Positions 32,745 through 44,202 of a stretch of DNA of 64,000 bases are shown piece by piece. Source of the DNA: Trichodelitschia bisporula (lineage: Eukaryota); contig ML996687.1 of assembly GCA_010356995.1 (NCBI GenBank), forward strand, positions 807,803 to 871,802, written 5' to 3'. A model generated the notes under the pieces. That model was not told the origin of the DNA and did not search any database. It worked only from the letters and a program-made list of their open reading frames with translations. The position numbers were made by a program, and so were the translations under genes. Each line of letters opens with the position of its first letter. Position 1 is the first letter of the stretch.

Positions 32745-33541
32745 ATGCGTTTCTCTCACCTTCTACTCGCTGTCTGCTTTGCGGCCCTTTCTGCCGCAAA
32801 GACCCACCACGGGAACCGCAATGGGACAGCCACAGCTGCCGCAGGACGACAGGGTGGGCGGGCAAGCGGCAATGGGACAGCATCCGCGTCTGGGGCATCT
32901 ACAAGGGCGCAGTGCGCTGAAGTCAAGCGGCTGACTACACTCACCGAACTCGCCGCAAACACCACTCAACTCACCGAGCTTCAAACGAAGCAAAACCTCA
33001 CGGTTGCTGATATCGACGACATCAAGCAAGCAGCCGCCAACGCCAAGACGCGCCTTACCGCGCTTCGGAGTAACTCTACTCTTATTGCAGCCTGTGCAGT
33101 GGTTGAGGCAGACAATAAACTCCAGAGCCAGTGCCACCAGATCCAACGTTTGACCAAGCTTGCTGGTTTGGCCAACAATGCAGCCGCGTTGCAGGAGCTG
33201 CAGACGAGGAGAAACCTTACTGCCACTCAGCTCGACGAGATCAAGGTGCAGGCCTCCAATGCCACCACTCGGCTGCGGGAACTCCAAGCCAACACCACCT
33301 TGACAGCCAGCTGCCAGAATCAGAAAGCAAGCAATGGCAAGAAGAATCAAACAGGTGAGGCTGCCTAACCTTTCTAACCGTATCACTGAGCTAACCCCCG
33401 AAAGGCGTTGGGGCGGCTGGCACCCCGCCGTCCGGTAACAAGGTTACTCGAAGCATTGAAGCAAGCGCTGCAAGCAACAACTTCATGCCGAACGGGTTTT
33501 TCGTTTTGGTTGCTGGCGCTTCGCTTGCTTTAGCACTTTGA
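32745..33541 (+). CDS. Secreted, probably GPI-anchored surface protein with two ~62-aa Cys-bounded repeats
   Basis: Signal peptide MRFSHLLLAVCFAALSAA. Repeats QCAEVKRL...NSTLIAAC and QCHQIQRL...NTTLTASC. After an intron (about 33355-33404) the tail is SAASNNFMPNGFFVLVAGASLALAL*. Confidence 0.8.
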
Positions 33542-33775
33542 AGTGATTGATATTATGCACGGGGGAGATGCTCGTCTCTGGCAGACAGAAATCGGGGAAG
33601 GAGAGTTGAAGACAATGTCATACTTCAAATCAGATCAAACTATGGGATGGGAACCTTGTACATAGGAAGCGTCGCACACCAAGCGAACAAATAAGAACAT
33701 TCGTTCATCAGCTTCATACTTCATTACAGGGATATATCTCTGATATCGTACATGGGTACGCTCGAGACGGGAGAC

Positions 33776-34993
33776 TTATGTTGAATCGTCGCCCTCAGTA
33801 GTCGTTCGTCGTCTCTCCATGGCTCTCTTGATAGCACCGCTCACCTCGGGATTGTTCCTGATCTCATTCTGGACCAACCACGCTGTTAGTTGTTGTTGGA
33901 GCCTGTCCTCGGCCGAAGGGTCGTCCGCAAAAGGCGTCAGTTCAAGTTCGAGGAGTTTCTTCACGTTCCCGTCGACAGCTCCGATCAGAAGCGCTAACTG
34001 ATCTATCGTTTGACGCTGGACAACTTCCACGTTTCCTTGGTTGGTGGGGCTCCGAAATAGTGGAGTTAGCTGAGCAACGGCGATGAAGAATGACAGCGCA
34101 ATTTTACGTGCGAGGATGATGGCCTGGAACGGCAGGTAGGGCGGGCGAAGTCTTAATGTTGTGCAAAGAGGGTTGATCAACCGGGCTACCAGCGGAGGGA
34201 AATCAGGACGAGTGATAGTATGCGCCTCGAAGACAAGCATCGCTGCCAGAGCAAGATAACGCCACTGTTGATGATTAAAAAAACTGCATTTCCTGGTGCA
34301 ACGATACTTACGTAGCGCCCGTCTTCCATGTAGCCGAGCACACTCATGACAACCAGCATCAAAGCGCTCCCTAGGTAGTATGGTGCGATAGTCTGCGCAC
34401 CGGTCACGACGAAGTCAAATACCGTTTTGCACGAGCGCCATTGCAAAATAATCTGTCCGAAACGATCATATGCAAAGCGCTTTGCAGGATCGGTGAGCAC
34501 ATCGTGGGCTTGCTTGAGGTGGATGAACCCGGCTTCAGCTTGCTGCCGGAATTCGGGCATCACCTTGTCAGGATGAAGTCGGACTGAGCTATAAGCGCGC
34601 GTTAATAGCGACCTTGAGATATAAGTGGACTCAAAAGGACGTACATCTTGCGAAACTGGGTTCTAATGGTCCTCTCGTCGGCGTCAACTGGCACACTGAG
34701 ATCTCGGTAGAAAGTGCTGGCCCGCTGCAGTTCCCAGTCCGCTTCATATATTGTGTAGAGCAGATACGCAGCAATGACCAGAATGAATATGTTCTTCCGG
34801 TGCTTCGCCCATCTGGGCTCGCCGGGACGCGGTTGGTGTTCGCCGGCACGTAGGGTAATGCGATAGTAGAATGTCTGGAGCCATCCTGTTACAAGCTGGC
34901 CGATGTTAGTAGGCGCGATGAGAAATAAATTAAGAGCTTGCTTACATTTGGCAAAACGTACCACGCGCCCCATGAAAAAAGTTGGCTTGACAT
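33776..34993 (-). CDS. Membrane-associated DnaJ-domain protein
   Basis: Starts MSSQLFSWGAWYVLPN. J-domain with RLHPDK and LTDPAKRFAYDRFG. Several transmembrane segments and 3 introns. Confidence 0.87.
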
Positions 34994-35416
34994 CGTGGGT
35001 GCGAGGCAAGGGGTCGAGGAAGTGAGAGCTGGCGACCGTCATGCGGCGTCCACTGGAGACAGCCACATTGCATGTCCAGGGTCCACTCGGCTCGCCTTCT
35101 GTTGTACCGTACGGTAGCTACCGTATTTTTACAGGGATGGCTGCGCCGTGTCGATCTTCCGAGTCCGATCCGACCCTGGCGACTTTGAATGTCGGAAAGA
35201 TCCGACTTGGCACATCAACTTTATAGAGTGGGACAGGTACATCCGTATTAGATGCTACGGATTACTTCACTTTTCACGACTGTTTTGATCCCACACTGTG
35301 CCGTGGAATGCAAGGTAACAAATTGCTGGCATATTTATCTCGCCAGCAGCACATCCAACTGTTCAAGAACCCGAGACCCCTCCCGCAGGAGTGGTCTTGC
35401 TAAACTTCATCCAAGC

Positions 35417-37040
35417 TCAGAGCGCGCCCTCGTCATTGGGACGAGTTTCAGACGCCGATGGGTCTGCAATGTGATCGCCTTCAAATATAAAGCCAATCTC
35501 TACTAAACTTGTAGGTGAACACCCAAAAGTTTTCCTATGCTCCAAGAATGCCTTTCTGATTGCCGGAAACCGCTCACGCACCCAAAATTCCTTCTCCCCC
35601 CACTTCTTCGGAAGCTTTCCTCTCCCGCCATGGTCCAACCCTTCCCGAGGCTCAGCGCTTGCGGCCCAGTCATAGAGCATATTGATGTACTGCGCGTCTT
35701 TTGGGAAATTGAGCCTGTGGAAGCTTCTTCCGTTGCTAGACTGAGCAATATGAGCGGCCTCCCATGACTCCAGTTCTTCCACGGACGGCAAAGAAAGGCG
35801 TCCGGAGTAGAGGCGAGCAAGCACGGCAGCTTGCGCCTCTGACAATGGAAATGGAATGACCTTCTGCGGGAGCGCAAGGAAGGCCAAGGTCGGTGCAGGC
35901 GTATAGATCAGGTGAAGGCATGTGTGCTTAACCCTCAAGCCATCAGAAATTGGTGGTGGTTTAAGCTTGTCGAGAAATGGCATGGAGTAGAGGTAGCCGG
36001 TGCAAAAAAGAACATGGTCGACCTGTGCCTCGCTGCCATTGGCAAATAGAACGGATTGGTTCTCAGGAATGAACTTTGAAATCTCAGGGACGAGTTGAAT
36101 GACTGAATTCGAAGCAAACCCAGCTTCCAAAGAAGAATGGGACCTTTCAGCAACGAATAAGGTTCCTTGACAGACAGCGGCAAGTTGAGAAGCGATGTCG
36201 AGGCCGGATGCGCTGCTTCCAACAACGACGATTCTCTTCCCCATAAACTCCTCGGGCCTGCGGTAGTACTTAGAGTGTGATATTGCGCCTGGATATCGCT
36301 CCGCCCATGCCCGGACGCCCGGGATGTCGGGGACATACGGGACACTGTAATGCCCAGACGCGACTATAACAGCATCATATATGCTCGTCTGATTCCGCCC
36401 CAAATCAAGATCGAGCGAATCGACCCTCCATTGAGCATGAATCAAAGTCGGGTCACTTGAAGCTCCGTGAAGAGGCCGAACATCCAGGACCTGCCGTCGA
36501 AATTTGATCAAGCTTCGAATGTCGCCGGCGTAGTTCTGTAGATAACTTTGCACTTGGGAATGCTTTGGGAAGAGAGGGATGTCGTCTGCAAAGTTCAGAT
36601 CAGAAAAGCCCATCAAACACCTAGGAATGTTGGTTTCCAGCAGGTCATAAACCGGGCTTAGGAAGACTGGTTGTTTCAAACGGTCCGCGGCTTGGCCGTT
36701 GATGGGATGTTTGGTCCGCCATACCGGCTGTTCAGGTCCAAGATGAGCATCTGTTTGCGGGACGGAGAAGAGGTGATCTCCAGAACTCTCAGGCGTATAC
36801 CCCCAAACTCCGCCGATGTCGTCTCGCTGCTCAAAGACATCTATTGTCTGGAAGGCCCCTTCATTCTTGAGATATCTGACCAAAAATTAGTTCGGCAGAA
36901 GCCTACAGCCTACACACGTACTTCGCTGCAGCGAGGCCAGCTGGTCCCGCGCCTATAATGGCTACTTTATGGACATCGAAATGGAGTCTTTGCGACAGTA
37001 TTTCGTCCTTAGATATCAGTTGAGAAGAGCGGGTTGCCAT
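35417..37040 (-). CDS. FMO1: Flavin-containing (thiol-specific-type) monooxygenase
   Basis: VAIIGAGPAG in exon 1, FEQRDDIGGVW, YDLLETNIP, ASGHY, ISHSKYY, VVGSSASG, FCTGY. Confidence 0.88.
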
Positions 37041-37602
37041 GTTTCAAGTGGATGACACCGAGAGTTTCAAGATAAGATCTGTTTCTGGATGGGGATTAAG
37101 CCAAGAAAACCTTTGAATTGCACCATTGGCTTGCAACATTTCGAATCCAAAGTCGCTAACGCAAGCTTGGTCAGGACTTCTAGCCCGGCGCCTGAAGGAG
37201 AGTCACAATGCTAATGGCACTACAAAGGGATAGGCACAAGTGAGTGGGAAATTGTGGGTTATCACCGGCTCGACGCCGTGTACATCCGTAGACCATGACA
37301 TCCCGCTGCAGTTAGGAAGTGTGGAGTGAGATATTGCCTCTCAAGCCATTATGAATGGACGGTGACTTGGATACGATGTCAGGAAGCTGGCCACTTTACA
37401 CAAGAAGGGAACAAAACACGCAGCGCGTACACTGCGGTACGTAGTAGACGCGTCGGCACGTGGATTGAACAGCATCCTAAGGTACGCACGGAGCGCAAAG
37501 CGAGCTTGCCATCAAGAGACGCCAAGAGCGCCCTTGCTCATAAAATTTTCGACAAGCTCCCAATGTTCCTCGCTCCCCAACTCTCTCCTTCACGCATCTA
37601 AC

Positions 37603-38449
37603 ATGGCTTCTTCGCTCGACCAACTACCTCCTGAAAAAATCGATGAACTCTTGCAACAGGCAGAAGGGCGCTTAAAGGCTGGAGAGACCACCTGCCCGAA
37701 TGCTGCGACTGTTAAAACCAGATTTCCCAAGCTGGACGTCGGCACCCTCCCCACCCCGTATGTTCAGCAGTCCGGACCGGTCGTGTGTGCCGACAGCAAG
37801 GCGCTCGTCCCGTCTTCACAGCGGACGGTTTCAGAGAAGCCCAGGACGCTCGTTGACCCAGTTCTAGTGCGCCAAAGACGCAAAAACGGTATGTTCTTTG
37901 CATACCTTTCCGAATATGCTGTGAGGAAAATTACCCAATTCTTCTTGACGCGGTGCCCGGAACCGTTTTGGTCTCCTTGCCGCAACCTATGAGAGATTAT
38001 TTTCATAGTTACTCTGAGCATCAAACAATCCATTCATTTTACTCCTTCCTTCGTTGGATCGTTACTGACAACCCGAAGCCCCAGATACTCTTCCAGACTG
38101 GTACAACATTCCACGGACAAATTTGACAACTGAACTCAAACGGGACCTCCAACTGCTCAATATGCGCTCGGTTCTCGATCCGAAAAGGATGTACAAAAAG
38201 CAGGGAAAGTTCAAGATACCCGAATACTCTCAAGTTGGTCAAATTGTCGAGGGGCCGACAGAATTCTACAGCGCTCGGTTGAGGAATAAGGATCGGAAGG
38301 AAACTTTTGTGGAAGATGCCTTGGCCGGCGAGGTCGAAACTGGACGGTTCAAGAGGAAGTATGAAGAAGTCCAGACCAAAAAGACAAGCGGCAAGAAGGC
38401 CTTCTACAAAGCACTCAAGGCCAAGCGAAGCAAGCATGGCAAAGGTTGA
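37603..38449 (+). CDS. FCF2: Pre-rRNA processing protein Fcf2
   Basis: After intron 37889-38084: DWYNIPRTNLTTELKRDLQLLNMRSVLDPKRMYKK...QVGQIVEGPTEFYSARL. Confidence 0.9.
37916..38021 (+). ncRNA. snR63: Intronic box C/D snoRNA, snR63/SNORD46-type, predicted guide for LSU rRNA Am2256 (yeast numbering)
   Basis: Terminal stem ATGCT (37916-20) / AGCAT (38017-21). C box GTGAGGA (37921-27) and D box CTGA (38014-17). The guide TCATAGTTACT directly upstream of D is the reverse complement of conserved LSU AGUAACUAUGA. Confidence 0.85.
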
Positions 38450-39348
38450 ACGCTGCTGCACGCAGGTACGCTTGCCACCATTCTCGACCAATCTTCAGCT
38501 TCAAAGCGGAACACACTATTAAAAGCTACATTGCCCTTATGCCGCCTTACCAGCACCGTCTCATTTTACAGCCGCTACGGATGTAGTTGAATGGGCATTC
38601 GATGAAATTGGTACATGGGCTTACGCTACATGCACGCAGAATATCTTGAGATATTCGGCTTCGTGCCTAGGAAGTGAAGAGCCGAAGGATGGGTTCAGAG
38701 GAGTTATGCTAGCATTGAGCGGGATTCCCTTGGCGACGGCCCAGGGATGCCATTGTAGATGCATGCAATCGAGCACAGTGAACATACTCCTTAAACGGAC
38801 TGTCATATCAAGAACACTTGAGCTGGAATGCCATCTGGCGTCCCAGTTCACATTGCAGTTGACTTTGCAAACGGAACATACCACGTGATAAGATGCCTTG
38901 TGCTTACCGAAGATTCCACGCAGAATGTGTGACTAATCATTCCAGGCTTGGCAGAGGCGCGGGTCCTTGAACGGCAGCGGTATTCACTCTTCTTCTCTTC
39001 TACTCTTCGTCCGTCACCATCACATCGTCTCGCACAAACCGCCGTCTCCTTTCGGATCCCCACTTGCGAGCTGACGGACATCGAAATTACGCACTGCCAC
39101 CTTCGCTTGCTTAATCCTCCGCCAATCGAGAGGCGGCACCGTCACTGCATCGAGGCGCTTCTTGCGACGACTCCTGGAGGCACGCCTTCTTCCACTCGTT
39201 AGTCACAGCGAGCACGTCTGCAAGAAGTGAATTCGACGTTCGACTGCTGGACATACAGTTAGGGAGGGAGGCGTAGATAGCAGACCCCAAGGAAGCCAAG
39301 CGGCCTCCCTTACTCCGTACCGAACGAAACCAAGAAAAGTCATCAAAG

Positions 39349-40416
39349 ATGGCGTCCACCATGACTGAAGAGCGCGCCCTCTCACCAGGAGAGGTGCCTG
39401 AGACGCAGGCCTTGACGGAAAGGCCCCAAGAGTGGGCGCAGAACCTTAACATCCACCTTGTCTGCGCCGACTGCAAGGAGTACCCGCCCAACTTGGTCGA
39501 GGAGTTTGCATCGGGCGATACGGTGTGTGGCTCTTGCGGTCTGGTTCTCCAGTCGCACGTTGTCGACACGCGCTCAGAATGGCGCACCTTCTCGAACGAC
39601 GACCAAGGCAACGATGACCCCTCGCGTATCGGTGAGGCGGCCAACCCGCTGCTCAATGGTTCACAACTTTCCACAACCATTGCCTATGGGCAAGGCGATG
39701 CGCGGAGCAGAGACCTCAACCGTGCCCAGAACAGGGCGAATGCGGACAAGACGACGAAGGCCCTGCTGGCCGCCTACAAGCAGATCGGCACACTGTGCGA
39801 CTCGTACCACCTATCGCACAGTGTGGCAGACACAGCTCGCCAGCTCTACAAGATGACGGATGACACAAAGGCGTTCAAGGGCAAGTCGCAAGACGCCATT
39901 ATCGCCAGCACAATTTTTATCTCGTGCAGGCAGAATAACGTGCCGCGTACCTTCAAGGAGATCACCTCGCTCACCAAGGTGCCTAAGAAGGAGATTGGCC
40001 GTACGTTCAAGGCCCTCGAGAAGTTCTTTCAGAAGCACACTCAAAGCACCGTGGCCAAGAACGAAACTTACACCACGACAACATCGACGAAAGCGCAGGA
40101 TCTCTGCGGGCGCTACTGCTCAGGACTCGATCTTCCGCAGCAAATCAGCGTCATTGCAGGCGAGTATGCCGACGAAATGATCAAGGCTGGTCTGTTGGCT
40201 GGTCGTTCGCCGTTATCCATCGCTGCCGTGTCCATTTACATGATGTCGCACCTGATGGGTATGCCCAAGACGCCGAAGGAGATCTCACTCGTGGCCGGTG
40301 TCAGCGATGGCACTATCCGCACCGCCTACCGACACATCTTCGAGGATCGTAAGGCTCTGATCAAGCCTGTGTGGCTTGAAAAAGGCGGCAACATGGATCT
40401 TCTACCGCAAGCTTAG
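39349..40416 (+). CDS. SUA7: Transcription initiation factor TFIIB
   Basis: Zn ribbon CADC...CGSC, B-reader VDTRSEWRTFSNDD, and two cyclin repeats (PRTFKEI, GRSPLSIAA, GVSDGTIRTAY). Intronless. Confidence 0.97.
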   Translation: MASTMTEERALSPGEVPETQALTERPQEWAQNLNIHLVCADCKEYPPNLVEEFASGDTVCGSCGLVLQSHVVDTRSEWRTFSNDDQGNDDPSRIGEAANPLLNGSQLSTTIAYGQGDARSRDLNRAQNRANADKTTKALLAAYKQIGTLCDSYHLSHSVADTARQLYKMTDDTKAFKGKSQDAIIASTIFISCRQNNVPRTFKEITSLTKVPKKEIGRTFKALEKFFQKHTQSTVAKNETYTTTTSTKAQDLCGRYCSGLDLPQQISVIAGEYADEMIKAGLLAGRSPLSIAAVSIYMMSHLMGMPKTPKEISLVAGVSDGTIRTAYRHIFEDRKALIKPVWLEKGGNMDLLPQA

Positions 40417-40931
40417 TCTTGATATCGGAGGGCGGGCTCATAGACGGCTGGGTACGGAGATTTCTTCGATCTTTGGGATTTGCGAATGCTCTTATGCTGG
40501 GGCGAGTGTTGTGGCAGTGGGTCTAGGTTGGCGTCGACCGGAGCACGGTGTTCGGATGGCGCTGGGAGGGCTTGGTGCTATGCTTTTGTAAGGGCTTGAC
40601 GCAGACATGACGACGTGGTGGGGTGATGGCATGAAGGTCGAGGCAAAGCGGGCGGACGGAACCATTAAATTGGACAACTGGCTCATCTGTTGTTTAGACT
40701 GGCTGTCGGCAGCAAGTAAATTGATAGCTGGAGGTTTAAGGTGCGGGTATTTGCAAGTGTTAAAGTGTGAATGCGCATGTAACAAAAACCTGGCCATATT
40801 GCTCTTTCGTATACCTATCGCGATTGCCGCTCTATCTCCCCGCCGGCCCACTCCCGTACGGCAAAACAAAGCAAGGCAAGTAAGTCTAACAAACAAAAGC
40901 ACATAACTTTTCAGGACTTCCTCTCCCCTAT

Positions 40932-42405
40932 TCATTCGAGCTGCAGCAGCGCACGCACGCTGGGATCGCTAGACACATACACGACTGAGTGTTTGTCGGT
41001 AAAACCGTTGAACCTGGTAGCGGAGCACTTGGTGTATGCTGGTTGCTGTTAGCTGTGGTTCATCTAGAGACAACTCCGATAAACTCACCACCCATATCCT
41101 CAAAGTACATCCAGTCACCTGTCTGGATGACTTCCGGAAAGGAGCAGGCCTGGGCGATGCAGTCGATGCCATCGCACGTCGGTCCCCAGATGGAGTAGTC
41201 GACCATGTTGGGCGTCTCGTAGCCGCTGGAGTGAGCGGCATACAGGAAACGATCGCCTGCACGCAGGATACGTGGTACCGGGTTCTGGTGGTCGAAGATG
41301 ATGCTGGAGAAGTTGCCGTAAACGCCATCGTTGAGGTACAGCATATACGACGACGTACCCAAGGTAGGGTCATTGACCGTCCGGCGCGCAATCACGTGGC
41401 ACGCAAGCGTGAAGGCCGACGAGACATAGAAGCGGCCCGGTTCGCCAATGATGCGGATGTGCGGCGGAAAATAGCAGTCGAGCGCGCTCGACAGCACGGC
41501 TGCCATATCCTCGAAGGAGGCGTCGCTGCAGAAGCCACCTCCGACGTCGAGCGTGTGCATGGCAAAGCCTAGGTCGGCGGCCTGGTCGAAGACGACACGT
41601 GCGTCTTGCACCGCCTTGAGGAAAGCCTTGGGGTCGGAGGCGCCGGAGCCGATATGGAAGGCAACACCAACGACATTGAGGCCGAGGGCGTGCGCCAACT
41701 CGAGAAGATCACGGGTGTTGTCGAGTGACGCGCCGAACTTGAGGCTTAGCGGGCAAAGACTGGCCGAGTCGTCGGTCAGAATGCGCAGGTACAGCTCGGC
41801 GTCGGGCAGGAGCTGCTTGGTTTTGTAAAGCTCGTCGGCATTGTCGAAGGTGAGCTGTCTGACGCCGTTCTGAGCAGCGTAGCGGAGGTGGGACTTGGTC
41901 TTGCAGGGCTGCGCGTAGATGATGCGCGCGGGGTCAATGCCCATCTGGAGGACCTGCTCCATCTCGGCCTTGGAGGCGCAGTCGAAGCCGGTGCCGAGTT
42001 CGGCCAACAAGCGGAGAACCTGTGGATCCGGGTTACATTTGACCGCTGGTGATGTTAGCAAGTCACGCGACGAAAGAAAAACTTTGGTAACGGGATACCA
42101 TAATGCGGTTTGACGCGGCCAAGGTTCAGCTTCCACCTCAGGTGCTGGCGATAGACCTCGCCAAGGTCGGCAACAAAGAAGGCATCTTCGTCACCTACAT
42201 CGCACGTATCGTGATCGATGGTGGAGATGCGACATTCAAGGGCCTGAGAAATCAGGCGCTTAGCTTCAGTCAAGCCATGATTTATAGGGCGCAGCAAGTC
42301 CAAGTCGCTGCTACTTGCGTCTAAAACCGGTGGTGGCGGTGTTGGTGGGGTCGTTTGCAAAGGCAAATCGATGTAATCGTTAGACGTAAGAGCAGAAGGT
42401 GCCAT
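40932..42405 (-). CDS. SPE1: Ornithine decarboxylase
   Basis: AFFVADLG, PHY|AVKCN (PLP Lys), GFDCAS, LSLKFGA, FHIGSG, LDVGGGF, EPGRF, WGPTCDGID, MG|AYT...FNGF. Ends LQLE*. Two introns. Confidence 0.96.
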
Positions 42406-42474
42406 AACCCGGGGCAGCCCGCTCCTGGTTGTGTGGGTTTGCGATAGAAAGGGTAGAGTCGGGTAGTAGCAGTG

Positions 42475-42672
42475 TTAGGGGGGCCGGAACGGCTCGAAGC
42501 GGTTACTCGACGACAGACGAGGCCTCCTCGACTCTTCCTCAGAGAGAGGAAGAAGTCCAAAGGGCGTCCTATGCGGCAGCTGGAAGATTGGAGACACTTG
42601 GGAGCTTGGGGGAAGCGGAACAGGAATCAAGACGCCTGGGGGATGTCGGAACGGAGGCGCCAAGTGCGGGAT
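42475..42672 (-). promoter_or_regulatory. Non-AUG upstream ORF (uCC-like) in the ODC leader
   Basis: Stop-free frame ending ...SNRFEPFRPP-TAA about 70 nt before the ODC ATG. Only near-cognate starts are available (ATC 42672, TTG 42663). No ATG between the TATA box and 42405. Confidence 0.7.
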
Positions 42673-42831
42673 ATTTTGGTGATGTGTGATATTGGCGGGG
42701 AGAGGAACACCCGGAAGCGAGGGGAAGCCAAAGAGGAAGAGAAGAAAGAGAAAGATGCTGGGGGGGAGGGAAGCGGGGAGGGAAGAGAAGGGGGGAAGGG
42801 AGGGGGGGAACGGGTTGGATAGTATGCGGGC

Positions 42832-42840
42832 TTTTTATAT
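42832..42840 (-). promoter_or_regulatory. TATA box of SPE1 followed by a CT-rich initiator tract
   Basis: ATATAAAAA on the minus strand, then about 100 nt of pyrimidine-rich sequence (42720-42810). Confidence 0.65.
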
Positions 42841-44202
42841 TGAAACCCGTAATAGCGCGTGGGTGAGTGGGCAGGCGTACGAGCGGTTCCGGTGACTTGC
42901 GGGTTTGAGGCACCGAAACCTGCAAGGCTGTCGATCGTCTACTGAAGCACGATCAAAGGCGTGTTTGGCTGAATAAGTGGGCTTTTTGATGGGAGAAGGG
43001 ATTTTACGGAATACAGGGAACGAGGTTCTGGAGAGAGAGCAGAGGGGGTGCTGGGAGTGGGAGGAGAAGGAGGAGAGCAGAGGTGAGAAGGCCGGGATGG
43101 GAGGGGATGTGAGAGGATATGAGGGGATGAGTCGTTTTTGGTGAGGAAGGCGAAGAGAGTCAACAGATTGGGGAAGGGGGAGGGATGGAGAATGGCGGTG
43201 GAGAGGATGAGAGAATTTTTTTGTGGTGTTCGCTTCGGCCTGGCCCGGAGGCCCACACACAAGAAGCTGATGTGTGTACTCCGTACTACGTACCGTACCA
43301 TATCCCTGACTACCAGGACTACATGCCGTACCGGACACTATTATTTTGGCATTTGGGTGAGTGTTGTGAGTACCGCCGTCCGTGTGCCTTTCGGTACCTG
43401 TCGTAAGGTCCTTTCGCAACAGTGAGTGAAGTTACAGCAGGATGATACTAATATAGCTCGGCAGCCAGTCAACAGAGTGGTGATACGATACGGTGCTCCG
43501 TACATATACAAATAGGGTTGGGTGTTCGCATGTTCTCCTCCTCCCTCCCTCGAGCTCACCATAACTAAAGAGCGAGTGTGGCAACTCTCTCCTCCCTCTC
43601 TCTACTTTACTACGTTGCGTATGTACATCCGTATCTTGCAAGTATATATTGCCTGTTCAGTCCTTTGCTGCTGTTACCCGGCAGTCCCGCTGCATCGCCA
43701 CATCGCCACTCCCAGCAATCCACGTGACTCCTAGGGCGCGAAAGAGAGACCTCAATCGCCGATTACCGGATTGATGCCTTGTGGCTGCCTCGGGAACCTC
43801 TTTAGTCCTTACTGCCTCGGGCCGCAACGCACATGGGGACCATCAGCATCACATGCCAGATTCAAACCCTCCAAAAATGCCTCCCCGCTGCGCATGGCTT
43901 GGCCTACGTCACCGGGTCACGTTGTACAACCTACACGGCCCAAGGGCCCATACGTGCAGGAAGAAAGAGGGGTGTTGCAGTGTACGTCATGAGGCTGAAT
44001 ATGCTGCCCCGCTCCTTCCTCCGGCCAAGGTCATTCATCGTCGTGCTTCACGCGTACCGTACCCGTACTAGCTTCAAGTTTCACAATCCGCAAGCTTATT
44101 TAACCAGCTTTCCTCCCACTCTTTTATTTCCCTCACACAAGAACTCCAGCAACTCTTACCAACACTCCTCAATTTCAAATCCCAAACCAAACCCTCATCA
44201 TC

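Follow-up and report, generated by a model that had tools for sequence, protein, structure and literature searches.

The oversized FCF2 intron of Trichodelitschia bisporula as host of an snR63/SNORD46-family box C/D snoRNA

Does the oversized intron of FCF2 in Trichodelitschia bisporula encode a small RNA and, if so, of which family and aimed at which target? The gene lies on the plus strand of the 64-kb stretch of fungal DNA that we analysed (the window). Exon 1 (coding part 37603..37888, 95 codons plus one nucleotide) translates to the N-terminus of the annotated protein P0002 (218 aa), and exon 2 (coding part 38079..38449) contains the Fcf2 domain (PF08698, E 2e-34; 118 bits against the Pfam family) and matches, at 100% identity, a T. 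bisporula protein of 218 aa that carries an Fcf2-domain label at NCBI. Contigs from runs X3 and X4 (one sample) show a 190-nt GT..AG gap at FCF2, and the DNA run X1 is continuous there; X3 and X4 are only guessed to be RNA, and their contigs are without all seven introns of the 33000-44000 stretch. Because the contigs skip 190 nt and the annotated protein has 218 residues, we place the intron at 37889..38078 (GTATGT ... CTGAC ... AAG). The initial annotation had it begin at the same donor GT, which is present at 37889, and run for 196 nt to 38084; the latter end was not borne out, since the CAG there would yield 216 aa, whereas the acceptor in use, AAG at 38076-38078, adds two residues that the annotated 218-aa protein has. 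That the intron is oversized, as had been noticed, holds for the part of the window where neighbours could be compared: 190 nt vs. 46-56 nt for the six other introns placed by contig alignment in 33000-44000 (11 of the 64 kb). The two in-frame acceptors lie 6 nt apart (AAG ending at 38078, CAG at 38084), and the contigs use only the first AG past the branch site. About 700 nt from FCF2 (37603), and divergent from it, lies a weakly covered minus-strand gene (35417-36922) whose intron measures 46 nt.

This single intron of the FCF2 coding region holds one box C/D snoRNA, almost certainly a real snR63/SNORD46 orthologue (37916..38021, plus strand, 106 nt including the terminal stem; ends predicted from a 41-copy alignment). 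The terminal stem, C box and D box first read in the intron are all present. Along the plus strand, the 5' arm of the stem, ATGC (37916..37919), pairs with GCAT (38018-38021); the variant box C, GTGAGGA (37921..37927), follows, TGAGGA being found in 39 of 50 distinct copies. Box D' TTGA (37945..37948), placed by alignment and fitting the D' marked in a published alignment, and box C' ATGAGAG (37989..37995), whose TG is invariant in our alignment, are degenerate yet conserved in position, as in that published snR63 alignment. Between them stands a hairpin (37950..37983) with the apical loop CC-GTTTT-GG (37963-37971), a C-GUNNU-G loop of the kind that marks snR63/SNORD46. The D guide TCATAGTTAC (38003..38012), antisense to LSU helix 69, precedes box D CTGA (38014..38017), which is present in 100% of the copies, these having been chosen by this very pattern. 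GTGAGGA and CTGA together can form a kink-turn, with the G-C pair of stem II kept in 41/41 copies and its A-U pair in 33/41; the G that replaces U in box C puts a G-U pair opposite box D and should be tolerated. The fold of region 37910-38028 has -29.7 kcal/mol (z -2.4). In the 64-kb window there is a single occurrence of guide plus D box, where base composition would predict about 3e-4 per 64 kb (an estimate made post hoc), and pattern search of the assembly gave a single copy of the snoRNA in the genome. A second match to TCATAGTTACTC (L003) was rejected: it is without a D box, and a control pattern gave three matches.

Like other intron-encoded snoRNAs, the RNA lies on the sense strand of a spliced intron, and its distance from the branch site is constrained. 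The branch A of CTGAC (38065..38069) is 51 nt past box D, and the corresponding distance is 44-61 nt in 50 copies; we attribute the length of the intron to an RNA of about 100 nt and a spacer of fixed size before the branch site.

Rfam, which had been suggested as a check of the intron, did not recognize the RNA at gathering score, nor did it match anything else in the 64-kb window at that level: the SNORD46 model (RF00218) reached 19 bits vs. a cut-off of 40, with E 0.2. With the stringency lowered, SNORD46 aligns over its full length, and the guide is also matched by three other C/D families. Our own covariance model gives 86.5 bits and no other match in the window, a score that is circular because the window is in the training set. 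The sub-threshold Rfam score and the non-canonical C box are what one would expect of a chance motif or a dead relic in an ordinary long intron, but the same C-box variant is the commonest one in relatives, and the boxes, the two stems and the spacing have all stayed intact and are conserved, so that we find this explanation hardly credible. Judged by sequence comparison, orthology is upheld by guide, structure and published alignment despite the score, and the case fills an annotation gap, namely, a family member in an FCF2 intron that Rfam misses.

Comparison of orthologous FCF2 introns, reached by scanning metagenome contigs with an Fcf2 alignment and taking the best 80 of 237 relatives (a redundant sample biased to close relatives), showed boxes and guide to be conserved. 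The core guide stood 96-116 nt before the codon of a conserved tryptophan in 65 of these best 80 loci, or in 66 when one C-to-T variant is allowed, and these 66/80 FCF2 loci have guide and D box at the same intron position. Four of the remaining 14 are too short, having at most 60 nt upstream and ending in an apparent intron 3' end, and ten read open across the intron position. Three of the ten match intron-bearing loci at 99.9-100% in both exons, three others are 85-91% alike to intron-bearing loci, and four have no close partner. From sequence, then, the ten look like spliced transcripts, and intron loss may have occurred in the four without a close genomic partner. Among the best 80 of 237 there was no locus with an intron but without the guide: all 66 that show the intron carry it. 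By best protein match the hosts include relatives of Aureobasidium (100%), of Cladosporium and Friedmanniomyces (98%), and of Penicillium (92%), Lachnellula (91%), Amniculicola (86%) and Pseudogymnoascus (84%), genera of the Dothideomycetes, Eurotiomycetes and Leotiomycetes. In two metagenome proteins (P0005 and P0009) the gene calls read through the intron, adding about 55-65 residues, among them the guide in translation, IIVTLS.

From the same best 80 of 237, together with the window, we drew 50 distinct copies, dropping loci in which box D has less than 150 nt before it. In these 50 copies the guide has eight invariant positions and two that are kept in 92-98%, and past the terminal stem conservation drops to 30-68%; the invariance of guide and box D is partly built in, because part of the guide and box D formed the selection pattern, in which the C box, hairpin and spacing had no part. 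Across 40 loci (picked from the 66, excluding truncated and near-duplicate ones) identity to the window averages 0.69 for the RNA, 0.66 for exon 2 (where the slice taken from the window was shifted by one codon) and 0.49-0.52 for the intron spacers; the RNA is thus about as conserved as FCF2 exon 2, and the flanking intron less so. The measurable introns (n = 39) span 191-229 nt. Some copies vary in detail: L048, L049 and L069 have an extra short hairpin-like insert between C' and guide, bringing C to D to about 110 nt, and L004, L006, L007 and L008 have the C box CTGATGA, no CCCA element and the loop AUUUU. L006 also has a C-to-T change in the guide, which would make a G-U pair.

Both stems covary, by counts that are not to be read as probabilities because the sequences are related. 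RNAalifold on 41 sequences returned one hairpin, that between D' and C', with 92.6% of cells paired vs. 81.0% in shuffled and 33-48% in slid alignments; two-sided changes occur in 8 of its 11 pairs, and none of 500 shuffles scored as high. The 4-bp terminal stem has 74% of cells paired and two-sided changes in 4/4 pairs, with 39 two-sided-change cells over the tested pairs vs. 14.7 in shuffles (0/500), although two of five measures were no better than shuffles. The covariation of both stems, the 66 loci among the best 80 of 237 and published homologues together support the compact, roughly 106-nt intronic snR63 proposed in the initial annotation.

The guide had been described as 11 nt abutting box D. 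The sequence TCATAGTTACT is indeed there at 38003-38013, adjoining CTGA, whereas the conserved part is 10 nt, the D-adjacent T being kept in only 82% (n = 50). These 10 nt are identical in yeast snR63, whose target is listed as L2256. By the D+5 count the methylated base would be the second A of GUAAC, which precedes Psi2258 by two bases; yeast Am2256 has the same place in the helix-69 loop (PMC2794176). The proposed aim at the Am2256 equivalent is thus supported as a prediction, from the identity of the guide to that of yeast snR63 and from a register taken from published sources. Pattern search and the Rfam LSU and 5.8S models found no rDNA of this species in the assembly, and none in the viral contigs. 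We ranked guide sites on L098, a stretch of eukaryotic LSU (Rfam-confirmed) on a stray contig of a bacterial bin, where helix 69 was the best site, at -13.7 vs. -11.7 kcal/mol for the next; L098 had been fetched with the target as pattern, so the match itself is by construction and only the ranking is informative. Several prokaryote genome records (L096-L123) hold contigs with eukaryote-type LSU rDNA, and in L096 a match lies within a 1.16-Mb bacterial contig.

The initial annotation had implied that a compact intronic form is new. It is not: filamentous ascomycetes and fission yeast have it as a rule, from which budding yeast departs. The compact intronic snR63 is already described in two papers, as Neurospora CD33 in 2009 (PMC2780460) and in a 2011 alignment (PMC3116282). 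Liu et al. 2009 cloned CD33 (Nc CD33 of Neurospora crassa, EU780957; 102 nt) as an intron-encoded homologue of snR63 and U46, among Neurospora C/D snoRNAs of which 45/55 are intronic (PMC2780460). It shares with our RNA the intronic location, a D guide to the same site (26S-Am2218), the TCTGA end, an ATCCCA-like element and a GCAG...CTGC hairpin, and differs in its canonical C box ATGATGA and loop GUCAU; its host gene is not named in the material covered from that source. The Pezizomycotina rows of van Nues et al. 2011 (PMC3116282), Dothideomycetes among them, are likewise compact and share the ATGAGGA variant of the C box (which a Eurotiomycete snR63 there also has), the positions of D' and C', the CCGTYTTGG hairpin and the target L2256. 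T. bisporula is absent from these rows and page 25 of the supplement is without genomic context; the Alternaria row is, by eye, near-identical to our locus L064.

The snR63 of S. cerevisiae (Am2256) has the 10-nt guide, the target and the hairpin-loop motif in common with our RNA, and differs by 88- and 55-nt insertions flanking the hairpin (PMC3116282, PMC2794176). Human SNORD46/U46 (RF00218) is represented by a 104-position model that aligns end to end and shares the guide and the CCGUCUUGG motif. It has an extra pairing 3' of the target that the FCF2-intron RNA has not kept, such pairing being below the shuffled level in 41 copies. The S. cerevisiae snR63 has its own transcription unit.

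The Schizosaccharomyces pombe snR63 (about 110 nt, intronic, with the same guide and hairpin) raises the question of whether our RNA is a double guide, its CCCA element before D' also directing methylation of the LSU U898 equivalent. According to the rows covered of the PMC4138321 supplement, which do not name the host, the S. pombe RNA has 25S-Um930 (12/0), predicted to be guided from the D' side, and 25S-Am2343 as targets, and its upstream guide matches the L898 guide of yeast snR40. Pairing of the C-D' spacers of our copies with the U898 target exceeds that of shuffled spacers (runs of 5.4 vs. 4.2 nt on average; -7.1 vs. -4.9 kcal/mol), and pattern searches turned up no other U898 guide in this genome: one pattern match for a separate guide reads as coding sequence (control, 2 matches), and none of 11 one-mismatch matches to an snR40-type pattern had a C box. 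Against this, only 6/41 spacers have a run of at least 7 nt to the U898 region, to which CCCA pairing is mostly 5-6 nt and out of register, and three other LSU sites draw more copies (28, 28 and 22 of 41) than it does (18/41). The element (37932..37938) is itself partly conserved, its core present in 45/50 copies and CCCA absent in 7/41, and it stands anywhere from 5 to 11 nt from D', contrary to the D'+5 rule. We found no D' guide of at least 10 nt in fixed register such as S. pombe has, and the second guide predicted there appears decayed here. We therefore consider a double guide very unlikely; the D' side probably does not function as a guide, and CCCA is possibly a relic of a second one.

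The preferred reading is thus of a single-guide snoRNA released from the FCF2 intron. In box C/D snoRNAs of this kind, core proteins assemble on the kink-turn, debranching and trimming release the RNA, and Nop1 methylates the target. For the present RNA, splicing of the host intron is observed, as is conservation of both sequence and structure. Snu13, Nop58, Nop56 and Nop1 would assemble on the C/D kink-turn during FCF2 splicing; the debranched intron would be trimmed to about 103-106 nt; the 10-nt guide would pair with helix 69 of pre-LSU rRNA; and Nop1 would 2'-O-methylate the A paired to the fifth base before box D (Am2256 equivalent). Co-expression of the snoRNA with FCF2 would follow from its intron position, and by sharing the FCF2 transcript it would, most simply, ride a ribosome-biogenesis promoter. 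This does not amount to a specific functional link between FCF2 and guide, since Fcf2 acts on the small-subunit precursor, as a component of its 90S form (PMC13542088), and the guide on the large subunit.

Alternatively, the conserved structure might act mainly in cis, on FCF2 splicing or mRNA level via snoRNP assembly, with guiding second. In three fungal classes, as assigned by best protein match, the FCF2 intron has kept the RNA, and the host is that same 90S pre-ribosome component, as a cis role might lead one to expect. The most conserved part is the rRNA guide, however, and human SNORD46 sits in RPS8 (PMC5025248, in the part covered), so the host of the snoRNA can change; nor was there an alternative joint or retained-intron piece among the pieces listed, from contigs that drop rare forms. 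A mainly cis role is, on balance, unlikely, and guiding remains our preferred function.

The FCF2/snR63 pair leaves known snoRNA function unchanged and joins a short list of fungal snoRNAs with a fixed host intron, namely, RPL7/snR39-snR59 and NOG2/snR191 (Lim et al. 2021; PMC8476143, main text and one supplement), which are likewise snoRNAs in conserved introns of ribosome or assembly genes across fungi. NOG2/snR191 also targets helix 69, with a different host and guide; there are thus two helix-69 guides in introns of ribosome-assembly genes. FCF2 itself was not found in that main text or supplement, nor did full-text search of the open literature find FCF2 as a snoRNA host. The main text of Canzler 2018 (PMC5824354) has no snR63, while its supplements and online alignments may hold the family; the part covered of PMC6171561 gave no match, and coverage also took in parts of PMC3919607 and PMC12309372. 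The fixed FCF2 host and a role for the hairpin loop may be unreported.

The hairpin loop is the one open lead. Its pattern is present in 50/50 copies and also in budding and fission yeast snR63 and the SNORD46 model, and the literature searched offered no explanation of its role. Conservation of the C-GUNNU-G loop (37963-37971) extends from budding yeast as far as human SNORD46, and L070 and published yeast rows show a compensatory change; in a subset of relatives A replaces the first G of the loop. As rRNA antisense it was rejected, its best sites in the 5' two thirds of LSU drawing only 11-15/41 copies; a site 22 nt before the target drew 11/41, and no rRNA partner stood out over those two thirds. 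More speculatively, and as a possibility to which we give rather little weight, FCF2 in filamentous ascomycetes would be a host of snR63 that is old but unreported. The C-GUNNU-G hairpin, which persists while the remainder of the RNA varies in length, would then be a dedicated binding site (e.g., of a helicase or an assembly factor) controlling when helix 69 becomes accessible or coupling snoRNP assembly to the splicing of FCF2, and CCCA would be left over from an ancestral second guide. In yeast, the effects of losing Am2256 alone are mild (PMC2794176), and the compact 106-nt RNA eases testing of the loop.

Several Fcf2 proteins (P0011, P0024, P0027 and others) are labelled 'dTDP-fucopyranose mutase', apparently a mix-up with the bacterial gene name fcf2.
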